64,000 nucleotides of DNA from Spirochaetota bacterium (GTDB taxonomy: Bacteria > Spirochaetota > UBA4802 > UBA5550). The notes below the pieces were generated by a model, which saw nothing but the letters and a program-made list of their open reading frames with translations, searched no databases and was not told the DNA's origin. Location of the stretch: assembly GCA_050298055.1 (NCBI GenBank), contig JBNKTL010000019.1, positions 23,649 through 87,648 of the forward strand. The letters are read 5' to 3'. Position numbers and translations under genes: made by a program. Shown one piece after another: positions 19,075 to 27,148 of this stretch (position 1 is its first letter; every line of letters begins with the position of its first letter).

Positions 19075-20193
19075 CTAAACATAGTTCCTGAGAAGAGCAC
19101 TCATTGCTTCATCAAATGAGTTATAACTCTCCTTTAAACTGTTTTTTATCCTCTCAATCTCAGGATCGGGTTTAAAATCGGAAAGAAACCTCACCCGGCC
19201 CGTTCTTCTTGCTGTGATAAATGACTCACGGGAATCTTCGTCCATTTCAAGGAAACGATCGATGGTATCAAGGATCTTCTGTTTATCATGGGGGAATTTC
19301 CCCTCTACATCCTCAATAAGGTTCATGATATGGTCACTGTGAAGTTCTGACTCGATCCCCTCCAGGCTTTGAATAAAGAGCCTGATCTCTTTCACTTTTT
19401 CGATCTCCGACAAAGGATTCCATTTTCCCTCATCCATAAGCACATGCAGAGGTGTACCCGGGATGGGGACGGTACTCCTGAGCCTGATAAAATCGGGGTT
19501 TATCATGTTTATGACCCTGGCTGATTCACGGGCATTCTCCCCGGAATAATCTGCTCCCCCTGATCCCGGCATAAAATACTCAGAGAGTTCAAAACCGGCA
19601 CTCCTTGCTTTGATCCCCGCATCGACCTGTTCCGCGGAAGTTACGCCTTTATCAATTAACTTGAGCACGGAATCCGATCCCGATTCCATACCAACATGGA
19701 TCCTGTTCAGTCCCGCATTACGAAGGAGCTTCAGTTCATCCAGGGATTTCCGGCTCACTGTCCGTGACCGTGCATAGGTTGTGATTCTCTCCACAGAGGG
19801 AAGTTTTTCCCTCAGATGATCCAGTACTCTGACAATATCATCTGTTTTCAGCACAAGGGAGTCGGCATCCTGGAGAAATACACTTTTCATTCCCCAGCTG
19901 TACCAGTACATGACCATTCGAATAAGTGCATCCTCAACTCCCTCTATCCGGATATCTCGGAAGAGAACCTGTTCTCCTGCTTCTCTCTCCTGCTGGAGTA
20001 TCCTTTCTTTGATGAAAGAGATAGAATCGATATCTGAAATAACATCTTCAACAGGTCTCCGTGAGAACTTCCTGCGTTTGTAAACCGGGCAGAAGGCGCA
20101 TTTGTTCCAGGGACAGTTTCTTGTGAGCCGGATAAGAATTGACGCCGCCTCACTGGGGGGCCTGATAGGTCCCATTTCAAAATTACAGTTCAT
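19075..20193 (-). CDS. Radical SAM protein of unknown function
   Basis: IRPPSEA-x-S motif, CPWNKCAFC cluster motif, FLQDADSL, GMESGSD. Confidence 0.85.
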   Translation of the reverse strand: MNCNFEMGPIRPPSEAASILIRLTRNCPWNKCAFCPVYKRRKFSRRPVEDVISDIDSISFIKERILQQEREAGEQVLFRDIRIEGVEDALIRMVMYWYSWGMKSVFLQDADSLVLKTDDIVRVLDHLREKLPSVERITTYARSRTVSRKSLDELKLLRNAGLNRIHVGMESGSDSVLKLIDKGVTSAEQVDAGIKARSAGFELSEYFMPGSGGADYSGENARESARVINMINPDFIRLRSTVPIPGTPLHVLMDEGKWNPLSEIEKVKEIRLFIQSLEGIESELHSDHIMNLIEDVEGKFPHDKQKILDTIDRFLEMDEDSRESFITARRTGRVRFLSDFKPDPEIERIKNSLKESYNSFDEAMSALLRNYV

Positions 20194-20244
20194 TATATTT
20201 TTTGTTAAACCTCTTTAACAATTATATTCTCTCTCTAACCGCTT

Positions 20245-20277
20245 CCCGGTGAATACCTCAGCCGAAAGCGGGGAAAA
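20245..20277. repeat. Direct repeat copy 2 flanking the radical SAM gene
   Basis: CCCGGTGAATACCTCAGCCGAAAGCGG. Confidence 0.65.
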
Positions 20278-20434
20278 CTACAGTTTTTTGTATTAATGAC
20301 CGGAAACTCATTAACTCATTATCATTAATAAGAATAAATCAATTCCGGATGTTACCTGTCAATCAAGATTACAAAAGAGTCAAAAATGATATTTTATAGT
20401 TGATAATATTCTGCTGTATCTGGTAATCTGAGTT

Positions 20435-20806
20435 ATGAAAAAGATCATAATGTTATTACCCATCCTTATCTTCCTCTCCGCAACTCTGCTTTCCTCTTCT
20501 TCTTACGCGATGAGTGAAAATGATAAGATCCTGCACCTTTTGAAAGAGATTGAAGTTTCAGGTTATACCTTTATCAGGAACGGCAATGAATATCCCTCAC
20601 GGAAGGCCAGGGAGCACCTTGAATTTAAACTGAAGAGAGCCGGGAAGATTAAAACAGCGGGTGATTTTATCAGAAAAATTGCGTCCCGGTCTTCATTTTC
20701 AGGTAAACCCTATTATATCAGGATGAAATCCGGCAGGATAATAAAAACAGAAGAGTGGCTCAAAGCAAAACTGAATGAACTGGAAAAACGCCAGAATTCG
20801 AAATAA
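20435..20806 (+). CDS. Exported DUF5329-like protein
   Basis: Signal peptide; FIRNG, A-x-x-HL-x-x-K, FI-x-x-IASRSS-x-SGKPY motifs. Confidence 0.75.
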   Translation: MKKIIMLLPILIFLSATLLSSSSYAMSENDKILHLLKEIEVSGYTFIRNGNEYPSRKAREHLEFKLKRAGKIKTAGDFIRKIASRSSFSGKPYYIRMKSGRIIKTEEWLKAKLNELEKRQNSK

Positions 20807-20859
20807 CGGGAATGCCCATAGTTGTTATTAATCAGTAATTCACTGTAAAAAGTTAACAA

Positions 20860-21165
20860 TTAACAACAGGAGACTGAACCGGAATCATCCCCGCAACCGC
20901 AGGTTGGTTCGGTGCCCTTGATCATGCCCGTTAAAATACCGGCAGCACATCCCACACCCGATTGAACACTTATTGCTCCCTCCCGGCAGTTGAGAGCGCA
21001 GGCGCCGCATTCCATACAGAGGTCCCGGTTGACCAGTTCCGCCTTATTCCCCTTCATTCTGAAAACCTCATGGGGACAGACCTGTGTACAGAGAGTACAT
21101 CCCGTGCATCTTTCACTGTCATACTTTAACGTGGTAACATTTTTTAAATAGGTTAATCCAAACAT
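20860..21165 (-). CDS. hgcB: Mercury methylation ferredoxin HgcB
   Basis: YLKNVTTL start, two CxxCxxCxxxC motifs (CTGCTLCTQVCPH, CMECGACALNC), GVGCA, C-terminal CC; directly downstream of hgcA. Confidence 0.95.
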   Translation of the reverse strand: MFGLTYLKNVTTLKYDSERCTGCTLCTQVCPHEVFRMKGNKAELVNRDLCMECGACALNCREGAISVQSGVGCAAGILTGMIKGTEPTCGCGDDSGSVSCC

Positions 21166-21198
21166 ACGCTCTCCCCAAATAAAAACTCACACAATCTT

Positions 21199-22362
21199 TT
21201 AAAGAAACCTGCTGATAATAAACAATACCAGCCCTGCCGATGCCGCAACTGCCTGTACCGGAACAGCAATCTTCAACTCCTTCATAACTCCGGAGAGTGA
21301 AGTAAATGTTGTTGATCCCGTAAAATTCATGGCAAAAAACGAAGTTATTGAAAGAGTAAGCAGCAGCAGGGACACGAGCTCTACATATCCCCCGCCGTTA
21401 AAACCGGGTAAGAAGAAATAGAGCATGCAATAAAGAAAAATGCCGGAAATAAGACCTTTAAAAGAAAAGGCCCTTCCCGGAATAAAGGGAATCAAAAGTG
21501 GTGTTATGACTGTTCCCGCAAGAAATGCCAGGATGAGGACAAGTAACGGATGGGCACCCCGGCTGATAATATTATCAAGGGAAAAACCCCTGCTGCTTAT
21601 TCCGGAAAGTAAAAGAAAAACAGCAATTGCCATAAAGAGATATTTAAGGGCCAAAGAAAATTCAACCGGTGTCAAAATCAGCCTGCTGATAAATCCGAAA
21701 CGGACTCTCCTCATCTCTCTGTCTGCCTTCATTCCCGCATCAAGAAACCTCTTGATGTCCGCAGCCCTCACCGGACCGTAAACAGGCTTAAAGCCGGTCT
21801 CCCGTGCCACAATATGCGCTGCCACACCGGGAGCGCCAAGCTGGGGGAGGATAACCCTTCTGTGACTGACAACTTTCCCAAGAGAAGCAATTTTTATCCT
21901 TTTAATCATTTCATCCGTACCGAAAGTCCCTTTTCCTGCAGCGCACCATACATTGATCCCCTTTGTATCCAGGACCAGTATCCAGGCATTAATTCCGGAT
22001 AAATGACTTCTCAGGTGATCAAAACTCAGCTTGTAATTAGCTGAAACAAGTACCGGTGAGTTTTTATCAGGATCTCCCGCGGCATAAAGACCCGGTGCTA
22101 TCATATAGTTGTCTCTGCCAATATTGAGCCTTACCTTTACGGTCCCTGCCCGGTCCCGGGCAGAGAGCTGAGTATTAACTTTCGGTATCCTCCCTGCGGC
22201 TGTTTCCACATAACCCTTTACATCAAGATCCCGGTATGAAGTTTTCTGTTTCGACTTCCCATCCGGTCCGCAACAGGAACTTTTTGTGATAACCGGCAGC
22301 GGCTGTGAGCTATTTTTAATGGTTGGCTTCTTTTCCGATATATTCGGTCCTGTTGCTTTCAT
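21199..22362 (-). CDS. hgcA: Mercury methylation corrinoid protein HgcA
   Basis: Cap-helix motif NVWCAAGKGTFG, ANYKLSFD, LPQLGAPGV, five C-terminal transmembrane segments, FTGSTTFTS. Confidence 0.97.
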   Translation of the reverse strand: MKATGPNISEKKPTIKNSSQPLPVITKSSCCGPDGKSKQKTSYRDLDVKGYVETAAGRIPKVNTQLSARDRAGTVKVRLNIGRDNYMIAPGLYAAGDPDKNSPVLVSANYKLSFDHLRSHLSGINAWILVLDTKGINVWCAAGKGTFGTDEMIKRIKIASLGKVVSHRRVILPQLGAPGVAAHIVARETGFKPVYGPVRAADIKRFLDAGMKADREMRRVRFGFISRLILTPVEFSLALKYLFMAIAVFLLLSGISSRGFSLDNIISRGAHPLLVLILAFLAGTVITPLLIPFIPGRAFSFKGLISGIFLYCMLYFFLPGFNGGGYVELVSLLLLTLSITSFFAMNFTGSTTFTSLSGVMKELKIAVPVQAVAASAGLVLFIISRFL

Positions 22363-22369
22363 GCTTTGA

Positions 22370-22837
22370 TTATTCTCCTTTTTGCAGAGGATTACAGCAT
22401 CCCAAAACAGGTTTACTCACTGCAGTGTCCAGAAGCTTTAAAGAGTTAATAACATCTTCCCTTTTTCCCACAGGGATGTTTCCCAGGATTTCTCCTGTAT
22501 ATTCCAGAGAACAGCTGTGAAGTTTCTTCTGAAGATTTAAACCCTTTTTCGATAATACGAGAAAAACCTTTCTTCTGTCATTTTCACTGCGGTTTCTTTT
22601 GACGATTCCATCCCTGACAAGAAGGTCAACCACTCTTGTTAACGTGCTGGTTGCCAGTCCCGTTTCGTCGCTGAGACGGTTCATGGATATCTCTTCATTC
22701 TCATGAATGATTTCAATTATCTGGCACTGTGATACCGTCACACCATGGCAGATCTTTTCGTTCCTGTCTATCCTGTTTACCTTTCTTAAAAGATTTTTCA
22801 GGATCAGTGTAAATTCTCTGTTCTCGTTATTATCCAT
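22370..22837 (-). CDS. MarR-family transcriptional regulator, Cys-rich
   Basis: Winged HTH (STLTRVVD-x-LV-x-x-G-x-V-x-R...DRR...L); ICHGVTVSQC and C-terminal GCC; ends 7 nt before the hgcA ATG. Confidence 0.88.
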   Translation of the reverse strand: MDNNENREFTLILKNLLRKVNRIDRNEKICHGVTVSQCQIIEIIHENEEISMNRLSDETGLATSTLTRVVDLLVRDGIVKRNRSENDRRKVFLVLSKKGLNLQKKLHSCSLEYTGEILGNIPVGKREDVINSLKLLDTAVSKPVLGCCNPLQKGE

Positions 22838-22845
22838 TTTAATAA

Positions 22846-22885
22846 TTGTATACTACAAATATATTATAATACAAGTAAATGTCAA
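22846..22885 (-). promoter_or_regulatory. Promoter and tandem operator of the marR-hgcA-hgcB unit
   Basis: Minus strand TTGACA (22885-22880), 16-nt spacer, TATATT (22863-22858); palindrome TTGTA-N3-TACAA at 22846-22858 and a 10/13 copy at 22862-22874. Confidence 0.65.
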
Positions 22886-23071
22886 GGAAAAAATTTAAAA
22901 ACCGGTTATTGGAATTAGATTGAATAAATAGCTGAGCAGCTGTTATGATGGTAAAATTTCACCCCCACGGGGCCTAATTTTTTCTTGTGAAAAATATAAT
23001 TATCAATTACACTTACCTGTGCTCAGCAACGGAGAGAAAAATTTTACATAACTCAAAAAACGGAGATACGG

Positions 23072-23461
23072 ATGGAAACAATCAACGTTAAATCAGTAAG
23101 CAGCGAAGAACTCATTGAGATAACAGGGGAAGTGAGCAGGATAGTAAAAAACAGCGGGAAAAAAGAGGGGATCTGCATCATCTATACTCCCCATACAACC
23201 GCAGCCATCACCATAAATGAAAATGCAGACAGGACCGTAAAGAGTGATATTTTGAAAGGACTGAAACATCTCGATTTTGAAAGAGTCAGGTTTGATCACG
23301 GAGAAGGCAATTCTCCCTCACATCTCAAATCATCAATCATCGGCTGTTCCGAAACATTAATGATAAACAGAGGTTCTCTTGAACTGGGGACCTGGCAGGG
23401 GATCTTCTTCTGCGAATTTGACGGTCCCCGGTCAAGGAAAGTCCATATAAAAGTTCTATAA
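23072..23461 (+). CDS. yjbQ: YjbQ/UPF0047 family protein
   Basis: PHTTAAITINENAD, HGEGNS-x-SH, LGTWQGIFFCEFDGPR motifs. Confidence 0.9.
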   Translation: METINVKSVSSEELIEITGEVSRIVKNSGKKEGICIIYTPHTTAAITINENADRTVKSDILKGLKHLDFERVRFDHGEGNSPSHLKSSIIGCSETLMINRGSLELGTWQGIFFCEFDGPRSRKVHIKVL

Positions 23462-23477
23462 GGAAAAAAGGAGGCCT

Positions 23478-23933
23478 ATGATGAAGTTATCCAGTTCCGC
23501 ATTTCAGGCAGGTGAAATGATACCTGCAGTCTACACGTGCGACAGTGATAATATATCACCGCCGCTCTCATGGAACGATGTACCGGACAAGACGGCAAGC
23601 TTTGCCCTCATTAACGATGATCCCGACGCGCCCCGGGGATGGGTCCACTGGGTCATATACAATATTCCCGCGGCTTCAACCGGTCTGGAAAAAGGAGTAA
23701 AAACTTCCGGCGTCCTTCCCGACGGCTCCGTCCAGGGAAGGAACGACTTCAGAAAAACCGGTTACGGGGGACCCTGCCCTCCCGGTGGAACTCACAGGTA
23801 TTACTTCAGGCTCTATGCCCTTGATACCCTCCTTGAAAAAACAGAGGGAATGACAAAAACCGAACTACTGGGAAAAATGAAAGGCCACATCCTCGCGGAA
23901 GCCGAACTCATGGGAAGATACAGCAGATCTTAG
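23478..23933 (+). CDS. YbhB/YbcL family (PEBP/Raf kinase inhibitor-like) protein
   Basis: SPPLSW, DPDAP, WVHW, YGGPCPP, HRY-x-F-x-LYALD motifs. Confidence 0.9.
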   Translation: MMKLSSSAFQAGEMIPAVYTCDSDNISPPLSWNDVPDKTASFALINDDPDAPRGWVHWVIYNIPAASTGLEKGVKTSGVLPDGSVQGRNDFRKTGYGGPCPPGGTHRYYFRLYALDTLLEKTEGMTKTELLGKMKGHILAEAELMGRYSRS

Positions 23934-25048
23934 CCTGGAAGGGAAACCATCTCCTGAAAAAGATCATCGTACACGGAACAGATGTTCCCCCAGTCAAATC
24001 TGCCCACCTCTGATCTGAGCTGATCGGTGCATATTGCGGGAAAGTCATCCATCATCTCTTTGAGCTTCACAACAAGCTCTTCTCTCTCCCGGTAAAAAAA
24101 CCTCTTAAATTCATCACCGGGGAAGAGCTCGGGATAGGTAAGCCTGACCGGGAGAAGAGGCACTGTTCTGCAGTACACCGCTTCGGCAATGCTGATACCA
24201 AAAAAGTCCTGGTTTGATGTTACAGGAAGAATATCCGCCATCCAGAGCCACCGGGCATACTCTTTAAAACTTTCCACATACCCGTACTTCACTATTCTGT
24301 CACCATACCTTGCCCTGGCTTTCTCAAATTCAGAAGGAGATTTCCTGAAATTTTCACCCAGAATCGCAAGGCTGAAACCGATCCCCTCCCTGTCTATCTC
24401 TTCCAGGACCCCGAAGAACTCACTGGGATTCTTGTCATACTCCCACCTGTGGTTCCAGAGGATAAGGGGGAGATCACTCTTTCCCCTTTCCGGGATGCTG
24501 ATACTGTCATACCTGTCAAGGGGCAGGCCCAGATGAAGGACCCTGCTCTTTTCACGAATGAACTCCACTTTATCAAGCTCATTGAAGTCGGGAAACTGTT
24601 TCAGGAAACCGGGGAGGGCATCCAGGAAGCTGTTTCTGTGAAATTCCGAGTTAAAAAGTACGTGGTCCGCGGCAAGTGCCGATGAAAAATTGATAAAACC
24701 GTAATGGCTGTCCCTGCTGTTTATAATATCCCTGTCAGCAGGTGACCAGGGATACGTGACCTGATTTTCATGAAAATAGAGGACCACGGGGATATTACGG
24801 CACTCCCTCCTGGTAAGTGAAAGGAAGACAGTGAGATCAAGCATATCCGAAGCGACAATAAGATCGGGCCTTGGGGAAAGTTCTCTGTACATCTGTGCAA
24901 GAGTAACGGCGCCCCCATGCATTCTCCACTTCCAGTATCTTCCGGGCAGGCCCAATACAGTCACTTCATGCCTGCTCTTTTCCCGTATCCCCTCAATCCA
25001 TAATTTATGGGACCCGGTATAAAAGGGTTCGACAAAGAGGATCTTCAT
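23930..25048 (-). CDS. DUF3524 + GT4 glycosyltransferase, homologous to GTDC1/QTMAN
   Basis: EPFYTGSH, WKWRMHGGA, YFHENQ-x-x-YP, FNS-x-FH, WNHRWEYDKNP, QDFFGIS-x-x-EA motifs. Confidence 0.85.
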   Translation of the reverse strand: MKILFVEPFYTGSHKLWIEGIREKSRHEVTVLGLPGRYWKWRMHGGAVTLAQMYRELSPRPDLIVASDMLDLTVFLSLTRRECRNIPVVLYFHENQVTYPWSPADRDIINSRDSHYGFINFSSALAADHVLFNSEFHRNSFLDALPGFLKQFPDFNELDKVEFIREKSRVLHLGLPLDRYDSISIPERGKSDLPLILWNHRWEYDKNPSEFFGVLEEIDREGIGFSLAILGENFRKSPSEFEKARARYGDRIVKYGYVESFKEYARWLWMADILPVTSNQDFFGISIAEAVYCRTVPLLPVRLTYPELFPGDEFKRFFYREREELVVKLKEMMDDFPAICTDQLRSEVGRFDWGNICSVYDDLFQEMVSLPG

Positions 25049-25159
25049 TTTTCAGTTTAACAAATGAAAGCACTTTGTATATTATTTTGTTGACACATGG
25101 TAATTCAATAACATATATTAATCACCTCTGAGTAAAGTGAAAAAATCGAAAAAGAGGAC

Positions 25160-27148
25160 ATGATAATGAAAAGATATATTATCCTTATTACTGCCTTTGC
25201 CCTGCTGCTTGCGGCTTCAGGTGATCTCAGGGCGGAGTGTATAAGCGGCAACTGTAAGGAGGGAAGCGGAACGAAGATATATCCCAGCGGCAGCAAGTAC
25301 ACAGGTGAATTCAAAGACGGGAAAGAGCATGGGAAAGGGACACTCTACTTTTTTAACGGAAGCAGTTATGAGGGCGAATTCAGGAACGGGGAATTCCATG
25401 GTAAAGGGAAAATCAGGTATTCCAACGGAAGTGAATACCAGGGGCAGTTCCTTGAAGGGAAGATAACCGGCGAAGGTGAATTTATCCCCCCGAAAATGAT
25501 GGAAGAGGTCAGGAGCATCCCTGACATCCTCCCGGAGAAGACAGATATTTTCATCACGGTGCCTTCAATATCAGACATCTACCGGCACTTCTCAATAAGA
25601 AGGGACAGAATTTTCGGAAATCCTGTAAAGGAAATATCAAAAATTGAGAAAAACCTCGGTATTAATCCCCTCTCCATCTGGGACCTTAAGTCAATTGGTA
25701 TCGACACCACCAGGGAAACGGGATTTTTTATTTCCGGACTGAAGATAGAGAAAAAGAAAAAACCGGTTATGAATGTTTTCTTATATTTACCTCTTTCCGA
25801 TAACCAGCTCTTCATGCAGAGAATAAAAAGCGCAATTGAGAAAAACGCCCCCAAAGTGACCTTTACTGAAAAAGACGGGTATACGGTTATGGGAAAGGAG
25901 GGGCAGAAAGACAAGATCTATATGATAAAGATAAAGAACTATCTTCTGATCGGTACAAACACAAACGGAGACGCTGTTCCAACAATAAAGAGGATACTCT
26001 CAGGAGAAAGCAACCTTCAAAAGTCAAAGCAATACAGGGATTTTTCTTCACGGTTCAAATCTTCAGGAAAGATATATTGCTACGCTGATATTGAAGGAAT
26101 ATTAAACAACAACAGGGATGCCTTTAAAAAACTTTACAAATCATTAAAGGTATATGACAGGAATTCAATTGAAAAGTTGATGAATGCCTACCAGGACTAC
26201 AGGAACGCCGCTCTCACCCTGGACCTTGAAAACAGTGACTTTAATCTCGATATTTATTACCTGCTCAAACCCCGGGCAAAAACACTTTCACTCTTCAAAG
26301 GAATTATCTTTAACAGAACAAGTATACTGGGAATAGAAAAAAATCCGATTTTTCTGGCTATACTCGGTTTTAATACGGAGCAATACTACAAGTATTTCAT
26401 GTCAATGATGCCCGAAATTTTTTCAAAATCCCTGAAGAAGAAATTCGCGGATATCAGGAAAGAATACAAACTGGATGTTGAAAAGGAGATCATCCCCAAC
26501 CTGGGAGGAAATTTTAACCTGGGAATGTACGACGGGAAGACCCTGAACATGTTCAACTACAACGCTCTTCTCACATTAACCGTAAAGAACAGAAGGACAT
26601 TTGAAAAGGCCATTAAGAAGATAACAAAGACTGTACCGAAAGAGATGAAAATGAGAGAAAAAATCGCCGGGGTCAATACCGATGTCTACTCCATGGGAAT
26701 GGTGAAAATCTATTCTGCCTTTAAAGGTAACCAGTTTATCCTCTCTCCGAGCAAACCTGTTTTTGAAGAGGCACTCAGGGCAAAAAAAACCGGCGGTTTC
26801 ACTAAGACAATGAAAGATAAAAAACTCGTTGCTTCAATGAAAAAGGATATCTCAATGCTCTATATAAATGTTGACGAAGCTGTTCTGGCCTTAAGAAACT
26901 TCGGTCCCATGTCAAAGTTGAATTCACCGGATCTGCAAAACCAGATCAAGAAGTTTGTTTATCTTCTCATCTCCAGCAAAATTAAAAAGACCTTTATTTC
27001 AGGTACTGTGATTGTAAAAACCCGGTTTAACGATCCCTTTTTCATTGGACTTAAAAAGGTTGTTGATGAGGCCAAAAGATTGAAAGCAAAAAGAAGAAAA
27101 TACAGGCACAAAAGAAGAGGAGTTGTCCCTTATCAGAAATCAGAGTAA
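25160..27148 (+). CDS. Exported protein with N-terminal MORN repeats and a large DUF3352-like domain
   Basis: Signal peptide, CISGNC, three Y-x-G-E/Q-F-x-x-G-x-x-x-G-x-G repeats, basic C-terminal tail. Confidence 0.65.
   Translation: MIMKRYIILITAFALLLAASGDLRAECISGNCKEGSGTKIYPSGSKYTGEFKDGKEHGKGTLYFFNGSSYEGEFRNGEFHGKGKIRYSNGSEYQGQFLEGKITGEGEFIPPKMMEEVRSIPDILPEKTDIFITVPSISDIYRHFSIRRDRIFGNPVKEISKIEKNLGINPLSIWDLKSIGIDTTRETGFFISGLKIEKKKKPVMNVFLYLPLSDNQLFMQRIKSAIEKNAPKVTFTEKDGYTVMGKEGQKDKIYMIKIKNYLLIGTNTNGDAVPTIKRILSGESNLQKSKQYRDFSSRFKSSGKIYCYADIEGILNNNRDAFKKLYKSLKVYDRNSIEKLMNAYQDYRNAALTLDLENSDFNLDIYYLLKPRAKTLSLFKGIIFNRTSILGIEKNPIFLAILGFNTEQYYKYFMSMMPEIFSKSLKKKFADIRKEYKLDVEKEIIPNLGGNFNLGMYDGKTLNMFNYNALLTLTVKNRRTFEKAIKKITKTVPKEMKMREKIAGVNTDVYSMGMVKIYSAFKGNQFILSPSKPVFEEALRAKKTGGFTKTMKDKKLVASMKKDISMLYINVDEAVLALRNFGPMSKLNSPDLQNQIKKFVYLLISSKIKKTFISGTVIVKTRFNDPFFIGLKKVVDEAKRLKAKRRKYRHKRRGVVPYQKSE

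Follow-up and report, generated by a model that had tools for sequence, protein, structure and literature searches.

A cysteine-bearing MarR regulator heads a conserved hgcAB module in a Spirochaetota bacterium and may respond to trivalent metalloids

How the mercury-methylation genes hgcAB are controlled, and what purpose they serve, are open questions in mercury biogeochemistry. The locus described here raises both in a specific form: which signal is read by a MarR regulator that stands at the head of hgcAB? It lies in a 64,000-nucleotide (nt) stretch of a Spirochaetota genome (assembly GCA_050298055.1, contig JBNKTL010000019.1, positions 23,649 to 87,648; hereafter the window), where marR, hgcA and hgcB are co-oriented on the minus strand. 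Judged from comparative sequence data, marR-hgcAB is a real, conserved regulatory module. We propose that the MarR is an autorepressor that acts at a tandem dyad and is released by trivalent metalloids, a combined reading to which we assign a probability of roughly 0.55. Autorepression at the dyad is very likely, and a trivalent metalloid as effector is somewhat favoured.

By their sequences, hgcA and hgcB are both genuine. The earlier note on this DNA had named the two products HgcA and HgcB, an assignment borne out by the family models NF040863 and NF040864, each matched over its cut-off, and by the cap helix, whose motif we take to be N(V/I)WCA(A/G)GK and which here reads NVWCAAGK. HgcB carries two CxxCxxCxxxC motifs and a terminal CC, and its gene adjoins hgcA at a distance of 33 nt. 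The shared orientation of the three genes, the 7-nt gap between the marR stop and the hgcA ATG, and the AAAGGAG within the marR 3′ end, all pointed out before, are confirmed in the sequence.

The same note had drawn attention to a palindrome, TTGTA-N3-TACAA (22846-22858), and to a second copy (22862-22874) at the predicted -10 box. Both are present, the second agreeing with the first at 10 of 13 positions, and the best promoter match in 20000-24000, TTGACA-16-TATATT (22885-22858, 11/12), has a -10 box that straddles them. We discarded the exact 13-mer as stand-alone evidence, since it is weakly above chance and too common: it occurs once in the window against 0.09 expected, a count reached by 8 of 100 shuffles, and its six genome-wide copies are comparable to those of other spacer lengths (0-9). 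The palindrome is significant because it is conserved across loci and because the site is the top-scoring tandem among 145 sites of at least 10/12 in its own genome. Scored at at least 10/12 against GTTGTA-N3-TACAAC, a consensus that was chosen by eye from early loci and to that extent weakens the case, the dyad is found in 60 of 80 MarR loci (sampled as described below), in 0 of 24 ArsR-led hgcA promoters (scores 6-9/12) and upstream of 12 out of 4040 open reading frames in the own genome. A second box lies at +/-16 bp in 45 of the 67 scored loci. The dyad also precedes MarR genes that head arsenic (ars) genes, at 10-11/12 in four of five plasmid loci and at 12/12 before the marR-arsM of locus L005. 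It therefore accompanies MarR, whether heading hgcA or ars genes, and not ArsR-led hgcA, and so behaves as an autoregulatory operator should.

On this basis, marR, hgcA and hgcB would likely be transcribed as a single three-gene message from the promoter at 22885-22858, and one MarR dimer per box, lying over the -10 region, would block RNA polymerase. The marR start codon is preceded by about 14 nt from the likely transcription start, without a Shine-Dalgarno sequence, and translation of marR may be weak and nearly leaderless. A wider regulon was considered and set aside, as no other tandem site in the own genome scored as high; because the marR-hgcAB site is the best tandem, the regulon is probably limited to this operon.

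Two other dyads were noticed by eye. In most of the 24 ArsR-led hgcA promoters (L024-L084), ATCGTA-N3-TACGAT lies just behind TTGAC and is likely the operator of the spirochaete hgcA-linked ArsR. Ahead of the cysteine-free MarRs of L006, L007 and L009 stands a related dyad whose spacer is 2 nt long; it is present twice, at a distance of about 14 bp, and scores 7-8/12.

The association of MarR with hgcA extends well beyond this genome. Searching 185,579 species genomes with a pattern built on hgcA-linked spirochaete proteins gave 292 relatives, and the best 80 of these relatives were kept. Directly downstream of the MarR lay hgcA in 75, arsN2 in two, and an IS5 transposase, an unknown gene and no downstream DNA in one each; 74 of the 75 hgcA products have the cap helix. 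Forty-five of the 80 loci are non-spirochaete by title, and hgcA follows in 41 of these. The proportion of 75/80 overstates the family-wide rate, because loci were ranked by their likeness to hgcA-linked spirochaete MarRs, and this tempers the argument. The transposase (L190:4699-6021) sits directly behind a CC-type MarR at a contig end.

Counting from hgcA gives lower figures. In the class of the host, 63 of 122 genomes have hgcA over the cut-off, and the co-oriented slot directly upstream of it holds MarR in 11 and ArsR in 27; in one genome the ArsR is divergent, in 22 something else stands there, and two have too little sequence; no locus among these 63 has MarR and ArsR together in the slot. 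Outside the class, the 31 hgcA genomes of a 401-genome phylum sample have MarR in 19, ArsR in one and an Acr3-like gene (named by eye) in four. MarR lies upstream of hgcA in 8 of 17 Acidobacteriota, where it is the sole regulator recognised directly upstream, in 5 of 30 Desulfobacterota (best 30 of 45 places), in 19 of 30 of a Syntrophomonad class (best 30 of 38 places) and in one of two Opitutales, each of these four counts including a centre genome that was picked for having the MarR. The survey of hgcA neighbourhoods suggested by the earlier note thus returned a conserved marR-hgcA linkage, supported at the sequence level in several phyla, together with a dyad that tracks MarR and not hgcA.

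The slot also varied in other ways. In L107, L113, L115 and L129 the gene immediately upstream of hgcA is Acr3-like (by eye), with arsR nearby in some; hgcA reads as an open frame of 707 amino acids (aa) in L107 and of 697 aa in L221, which may be read-through or fusion. L042, L236, L238, L240, L242 and L255 have a small AbrB-type gene in the regulator slot. Genus g8 (L036, L037, L043, L046, L047, L052, L075, L085) has hgcA without a regulator, divergent from genes that by eye are hemerythrin-like, flavodiiron-like and small-ferredoxin genes; in L085 (G107:C2:1958355-1959330) hgcA is split over two frames, a frameshift or an assembly error.

What might such a regulator sense? Pfam models and a winged-helix fold both identify the marR product as a MarR; the fold aligns to MexR with Z 15.7 and a root-mean-square deviation of 2.7 over 134 aligned positions. 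An ArsR/SmtB identity is not indicated: the ArsR HTH_5 model is not among the family matches of the regulator, which has MarR models and the MarR fold instead. AdMarR_ars of Achromobacter sp. As-55, the founder of the MarR_ars subfamily, is an autorepressor released by As(III) and Sb(III), in which all three cysteines are needed for the full response (bioRxiv 10.1101/2021.08.12.456183). As its proxy we used L093 of Pseudomonas nitroreducens, which has Cys36, Cys37 and Cys157 with the same numbering. The regulator aligns to L093 without gaps at 29% identity, placing Ile29 on Cys36, Cys30 on Cys37, His31 on Tyr38 and Cys38 on Cys45.

Through this proxy, the regulator shares with AdMarR_ars the MarR fold, a loop cysteine (Cys30 for Cys37), a C-terminal CC (Cys147 approximately at Cys157, in a loosely aligned tail) and an autoregulatory layout, the same dyad standing before L093 and relatives. 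It differs in having Ile29 at Cys36 and an extra conserved Cys109, in belonging to a separate lineage, and in heading hgcAB rather than arsV, arsN or arsP. Among the 26 members of that lineage, which are 33-79% identical to the regulator, Cys30 is kept in 26, Cys147 in 25, Cys109 in 24 and Cys38 in 16; a cysteine at position 29, the equivalent of Cys36, occurs in 0 of the 26. An invariant Cys30 and retained Cys109 and Cys147 in proteins so divergent indicate selection on these cysteines. Of the Cys/His ligands put forward in the earlier note, Cys30 and Cys147/148 therefore stand as candidates, Cys109 joins them, and His31 drops out. We rejected the histidine both as a ligand and as a replaced cysteine (Cys37 to His), as it falls on Tyr38 and its position is variable (Tyr in 15 members, Cys in six, His in only four and Phe in one).

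The single-loop-cysteine lineage is supported at 96/96 in a tree from which the cysteine columns were left out. Its known contexts are hgcA in three of three (G000, the genome studied here, G009 and L096); a metagenome scan for further contexts gave one locus, and a search of the 401-genome phylum sample recovered G000 and G009 alone (E<1e-50). Because two features of MarR_ars membership, Cys36 and an ars operon, are missing and the deep tree is open, the regulator is best described, from its sequence, as MarR_ars-like rather than as a member. A single loop cysteine occurs with Cys109 in 38/56 against 10/182 in raw counts. In the proposed mechanism, Cys30 in the helix 1-2 loop, Cys109 in helix 5, and Cys147/148 or Cys38 would form a thiolate site, in which Cys109 may substitute for the missing Cys36; arsenite, antimonite or methylarsenite is predicted to bind these cysteines and derepress the operon, as in AdMarR_ars.

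Kinship with arsenic genes points the same way. The top matches among plasmids were the same whether the regulator or a relative served as query, and all five plasmid relatives inspected lie in ars-type contexts (arsN1, an ArsP permease by Pfam, acr3, arsD, arsA). In the tree, hgc-heading and ars-heading MarRs are interleaved: L005 (arsM) is sister to L025 (hgcA) at 99/97, L094 (arsN1) is sister to L253 (hgcA) at 100/99, and two arsN2-heading MarRs fall inside the main hgcA group (91/96). In the family of the host, arsM and hgcAB occupy the same slot. The arrangement marR-arsM-nnrU-like in G003 (L134:4030-6172) corresponds to marR-hgcA-hgcB-nnrU-like in G026 (L131:4664-7537) and G006 (L132:4251-7184), with the flanking MarR 57-59% and the NnrU-like membrane protein 55-56% identical. 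Since the arsM-heading MarR of G003 has Cys30, Cys109 and the C-terminal CC in the same layout as the regulator studied, this layout would at least fit the control of an arsenic gene, and the resemblance to MarR_ars narrows the predicted effector to As(III), Sb(III) or methylarsenite.

Several points weigh against the proposal. The founder AdMarR_ars enters the comparison only through its proxy, and its C36S variant has a weaker As(III) response (bioRxiv 10.1101/2021.08.12.456183), while the regulator has Ile29 at that position. The deep nodes of the tree lack resolution, so that a place for the lineage inside MarR_ars is not established. Cys109 as a compensatory change failed a test on phylogenetically independent pairs (median p 1). 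An ars-like gene lies within 4 kb of only 9 of the 75 MarR-hgcAB loci, several of them weak ArsC matches, and of 2 of 75 at stricter thresholds. The neighbours here are hgcAB, yjbQ and a DUF5329 gene; arsR-acr3, on another contig (G000:C4:80374-81872), are the sole clear arsenic genes that our queries turned up in the own genome, which had no match to ArsP, ArsN, ArsA or ArsD. Finally, DNA binding, transcript and effector are all predictions. Elsewhere in the same genome, at G000:C30:12000-14938, a thiolase gene is followed directly by the gene of a MarR that is short at its N-terminus, lacks a clear start and looks like a truncated regulator; next come a methyltransferase of weak likeness to ArsM (39% over 165 aa) and a radical SAM gene.

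The strongest competitor, though an unlikely one, keeps the same autorepressor and operator and changes the signal to a divalent thiophilic metal (Hg(II), Cd, Zn, Cu or Co) that would release or tighten DNA binding from a zinc pocket of the AdcR/ZitR type. That pocket is bounded by the helix 1-2 loop together with helices 2 and 5, the regions to which Cys30, Cys38 and Cys109 seem to map, and uses the ligands Cys30, Glu41, Glu107 and Glu24, His42, His108, His112 (PMC6372160). Positions 34-147 of the family profile align to AdcR 36-151, putting Cys38 near Glu41 and Cys109 near His112 (+/-2), and this proximity by range offsets keeps the idea alive. Five cysteines could form four-coordinate sites, and of 117 hgcA-linked MarRs, 109 retain Cys38 and 105 retain His39. 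The mapping comes from range offsets and not from residue-level alignment, so it is approximate that the ligand positions here hold Cys38, Gln39, Lys104/105 and Cys109; the His/Glu-rich ligand set appears to be absent, the regulator has Gln39 and, in its lineage, Cys38 is far from constant. ZitR was Foldseek rank 1, but the ranks are tied and VIA-align places ZitR/AdcR at 31-50 among generic MarRs (11-17% identity in structural alignments), so we did not retain ZitR as the closest structure. Among the genes annotated around the five plasmid relatives are ars genes and no metal-uptake or mer gene.

Less probable again is a redox or sulfur switch, in which a disulfide or persulfide would make hgcAB track oxidant or sulfide status. 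Oxidation of cysteine can switch MarR proteins, as at Cys80 of E. coli MarR, and the C-terminal CC lies in a tail predicted with low confidence (predicted local distance difference test, pLDDT, 53-61) and probably mobile. The HgcAB families carry a corrinoid and Fe-S clusters, and HgcAB is oxygen-sensitive. One relative, L130, adjoins a cysteine-synthesis cluster (by eye). The non-hgc relatives of known context, by contrast, head arsM, arsN1, arsN2 or arsP and not peroxide or sulfur genes, and the tested founder, AdMarR_ars, answers to As(III) and Sb(III). The weakest alternative, that the MarR merely damps its own operon, with a decayed effector site or with hgcAB captured behind an ars-type promoter and in effect constitutive, would fit the missing founder cysteine, the few ars genes near MarR-hgcAB loci and the hgcA genes without a recognisable regulator in front (22/63 in the class, 17/30 Desulfobacterota, best 30 of 45), but it sits poorly with the selection implied by the retained cysteines and is improbable.

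A metalloid-released autorepressor would have parallels in print. The hgcAB genes of ND132 (Pseudodesulfovibrio mercurii) are under arsenic- and S-adenosylhomocysteine-responsive control by ArsR (bioRxiv 10.1101/2022.10.17.512643). As here, a cysteine-bearing, co-oriented repressor stands directly before hgcAB, and an arsenic response is reported, although the ND132 regulator, ArsR2, is of the ArsR/SmtB family and unrelated to the MarR. ArsR-like genes have also been linked to lower hgcA expression (PMC11984097). In Dethiobacter alkaliphilus and Geobacter daltonii, hgcA is likewise preceded by a MarR gene (PMC10349881); the two MarRs occupy the same slot and have a loop CC and a C-terminal CC (supplementary file 3 there), but by eye differ in their adjacent loop cysteines and in lacking the helix-5 cysteine. 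In 112 genomes, a 'putative transcriptional regulator' was reported ahead of hgcAB (PMC7438021); it shares the slot across several phyla and is drawn apart from arsR in the legend of Fig. 6. In the accessible part of that paper the family is unnamed and the word 'MarR' occurs 0 times; given that MarR was the sole recognised upstream regulator in our Acidobacteriota sample, the regulator may be of the same MarR family. The novelty implied by the earlier note is thus reduced, as MarR before hgcA in two isolates and the arsenic link through ArsR were already published. A tie between the hgcA-linked MarR and MarR_ars, or an operator for this hgcA-linked MarR, was not among the literature matches listed, a search whose scope left most subscription journals outside. 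New from this locus are the single-loop-cysteine lineage, with its conserved Cys109, and the documented arsM/hgcAB swap.

The features of the locus are collected in Table 1. The operon is flanked by a divergent yjbQ and a convergent DUF5329 gene, and the locus is largely covered by contigs of a second DNA run from the same study, with four differences. Since yjbQ and a MORN-repeat gene (window 23072-27148) flank the operon in G009 as well (L002), synteny at this locus spans two genera. Ahead of the family model, HgcA is extended at its N-terminus by about 58 residues (window 22237-22362) that include a CC pair, and many relatives have similar Cys-rich extensions.

Table 1 Features of the marR-hgcAB locus, in window coordinates
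Feature	Position	Strand	Details
Predicted -35 box TTGACA	22880..22885	-	11/12 promoter match
Upstream operator-like box	22861..22875	.	8/12 to GTTGTA-N3-TACAAC; 16 bp from main box
Predicted -10 box TATATT	22858..22863	-	16-nt spacer; straddles both operator-like boxes
Main operator-like dyad	22845..22859	.	10/12 to GTTGTA-N3-TACAAC; core TTGTA-N3-TACAA 22846-22858; over likely transcription start
marR	22837-22370	-	155 aa; Cys30/38/109/147/148; PF12802 50.2 bits, PF01047 45.9 bits
hgcA ribosome-binding site AAAGGAG	22381-22375	-	Within last marR codons, 12 nt from hgcA ATG
hgcA	22362-21199	-	Corrinoid methyltransferase, 387 aa; NF040863 438 bits, cut-off 275
HgcA cap-helix motif NVWCAAGK	21954-21931	-	From sequence
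hgcB ribosome-binding site GGGGAG	21176-21171	-	From sequence
hgcB	21165-20860	-	2x[4Fe-4S] ferredoxin, 101 aa; NF040864 119.3 bits, cut-off 99

A further, speculative step would be that several arsenic-sensing MarR lineages were placed before hgcAB in many phyla, independently of ArsR, that the selected role of HgcAB is arsenic or antimony chemistry with mercury methylation as a side reaction, and that the rebuilt Cys30/Cys109/Cys147 site is tuned to the native signal. It would follow from arsenic-sensing MarRs standing before hgcAB and from hgcAB being able to replace arsM in one operon, and would give HgcAB a part in processes such as the methylation of metalloids or protection from methylarsenite; we consider it doubtful. 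A second repressor family, unrelated to ArsR and with a defined putative operator and arsenic-gene relatives, moves the arsenic link from one model strain to a comparative pattern, and two cultured methylators have a regulator of this kind. Should arsenite or antimonite indeed induce hgcAB in spirochaetes, syntrophs and acidobacteria, co-contamination would predict the expression of methylmercury genes.

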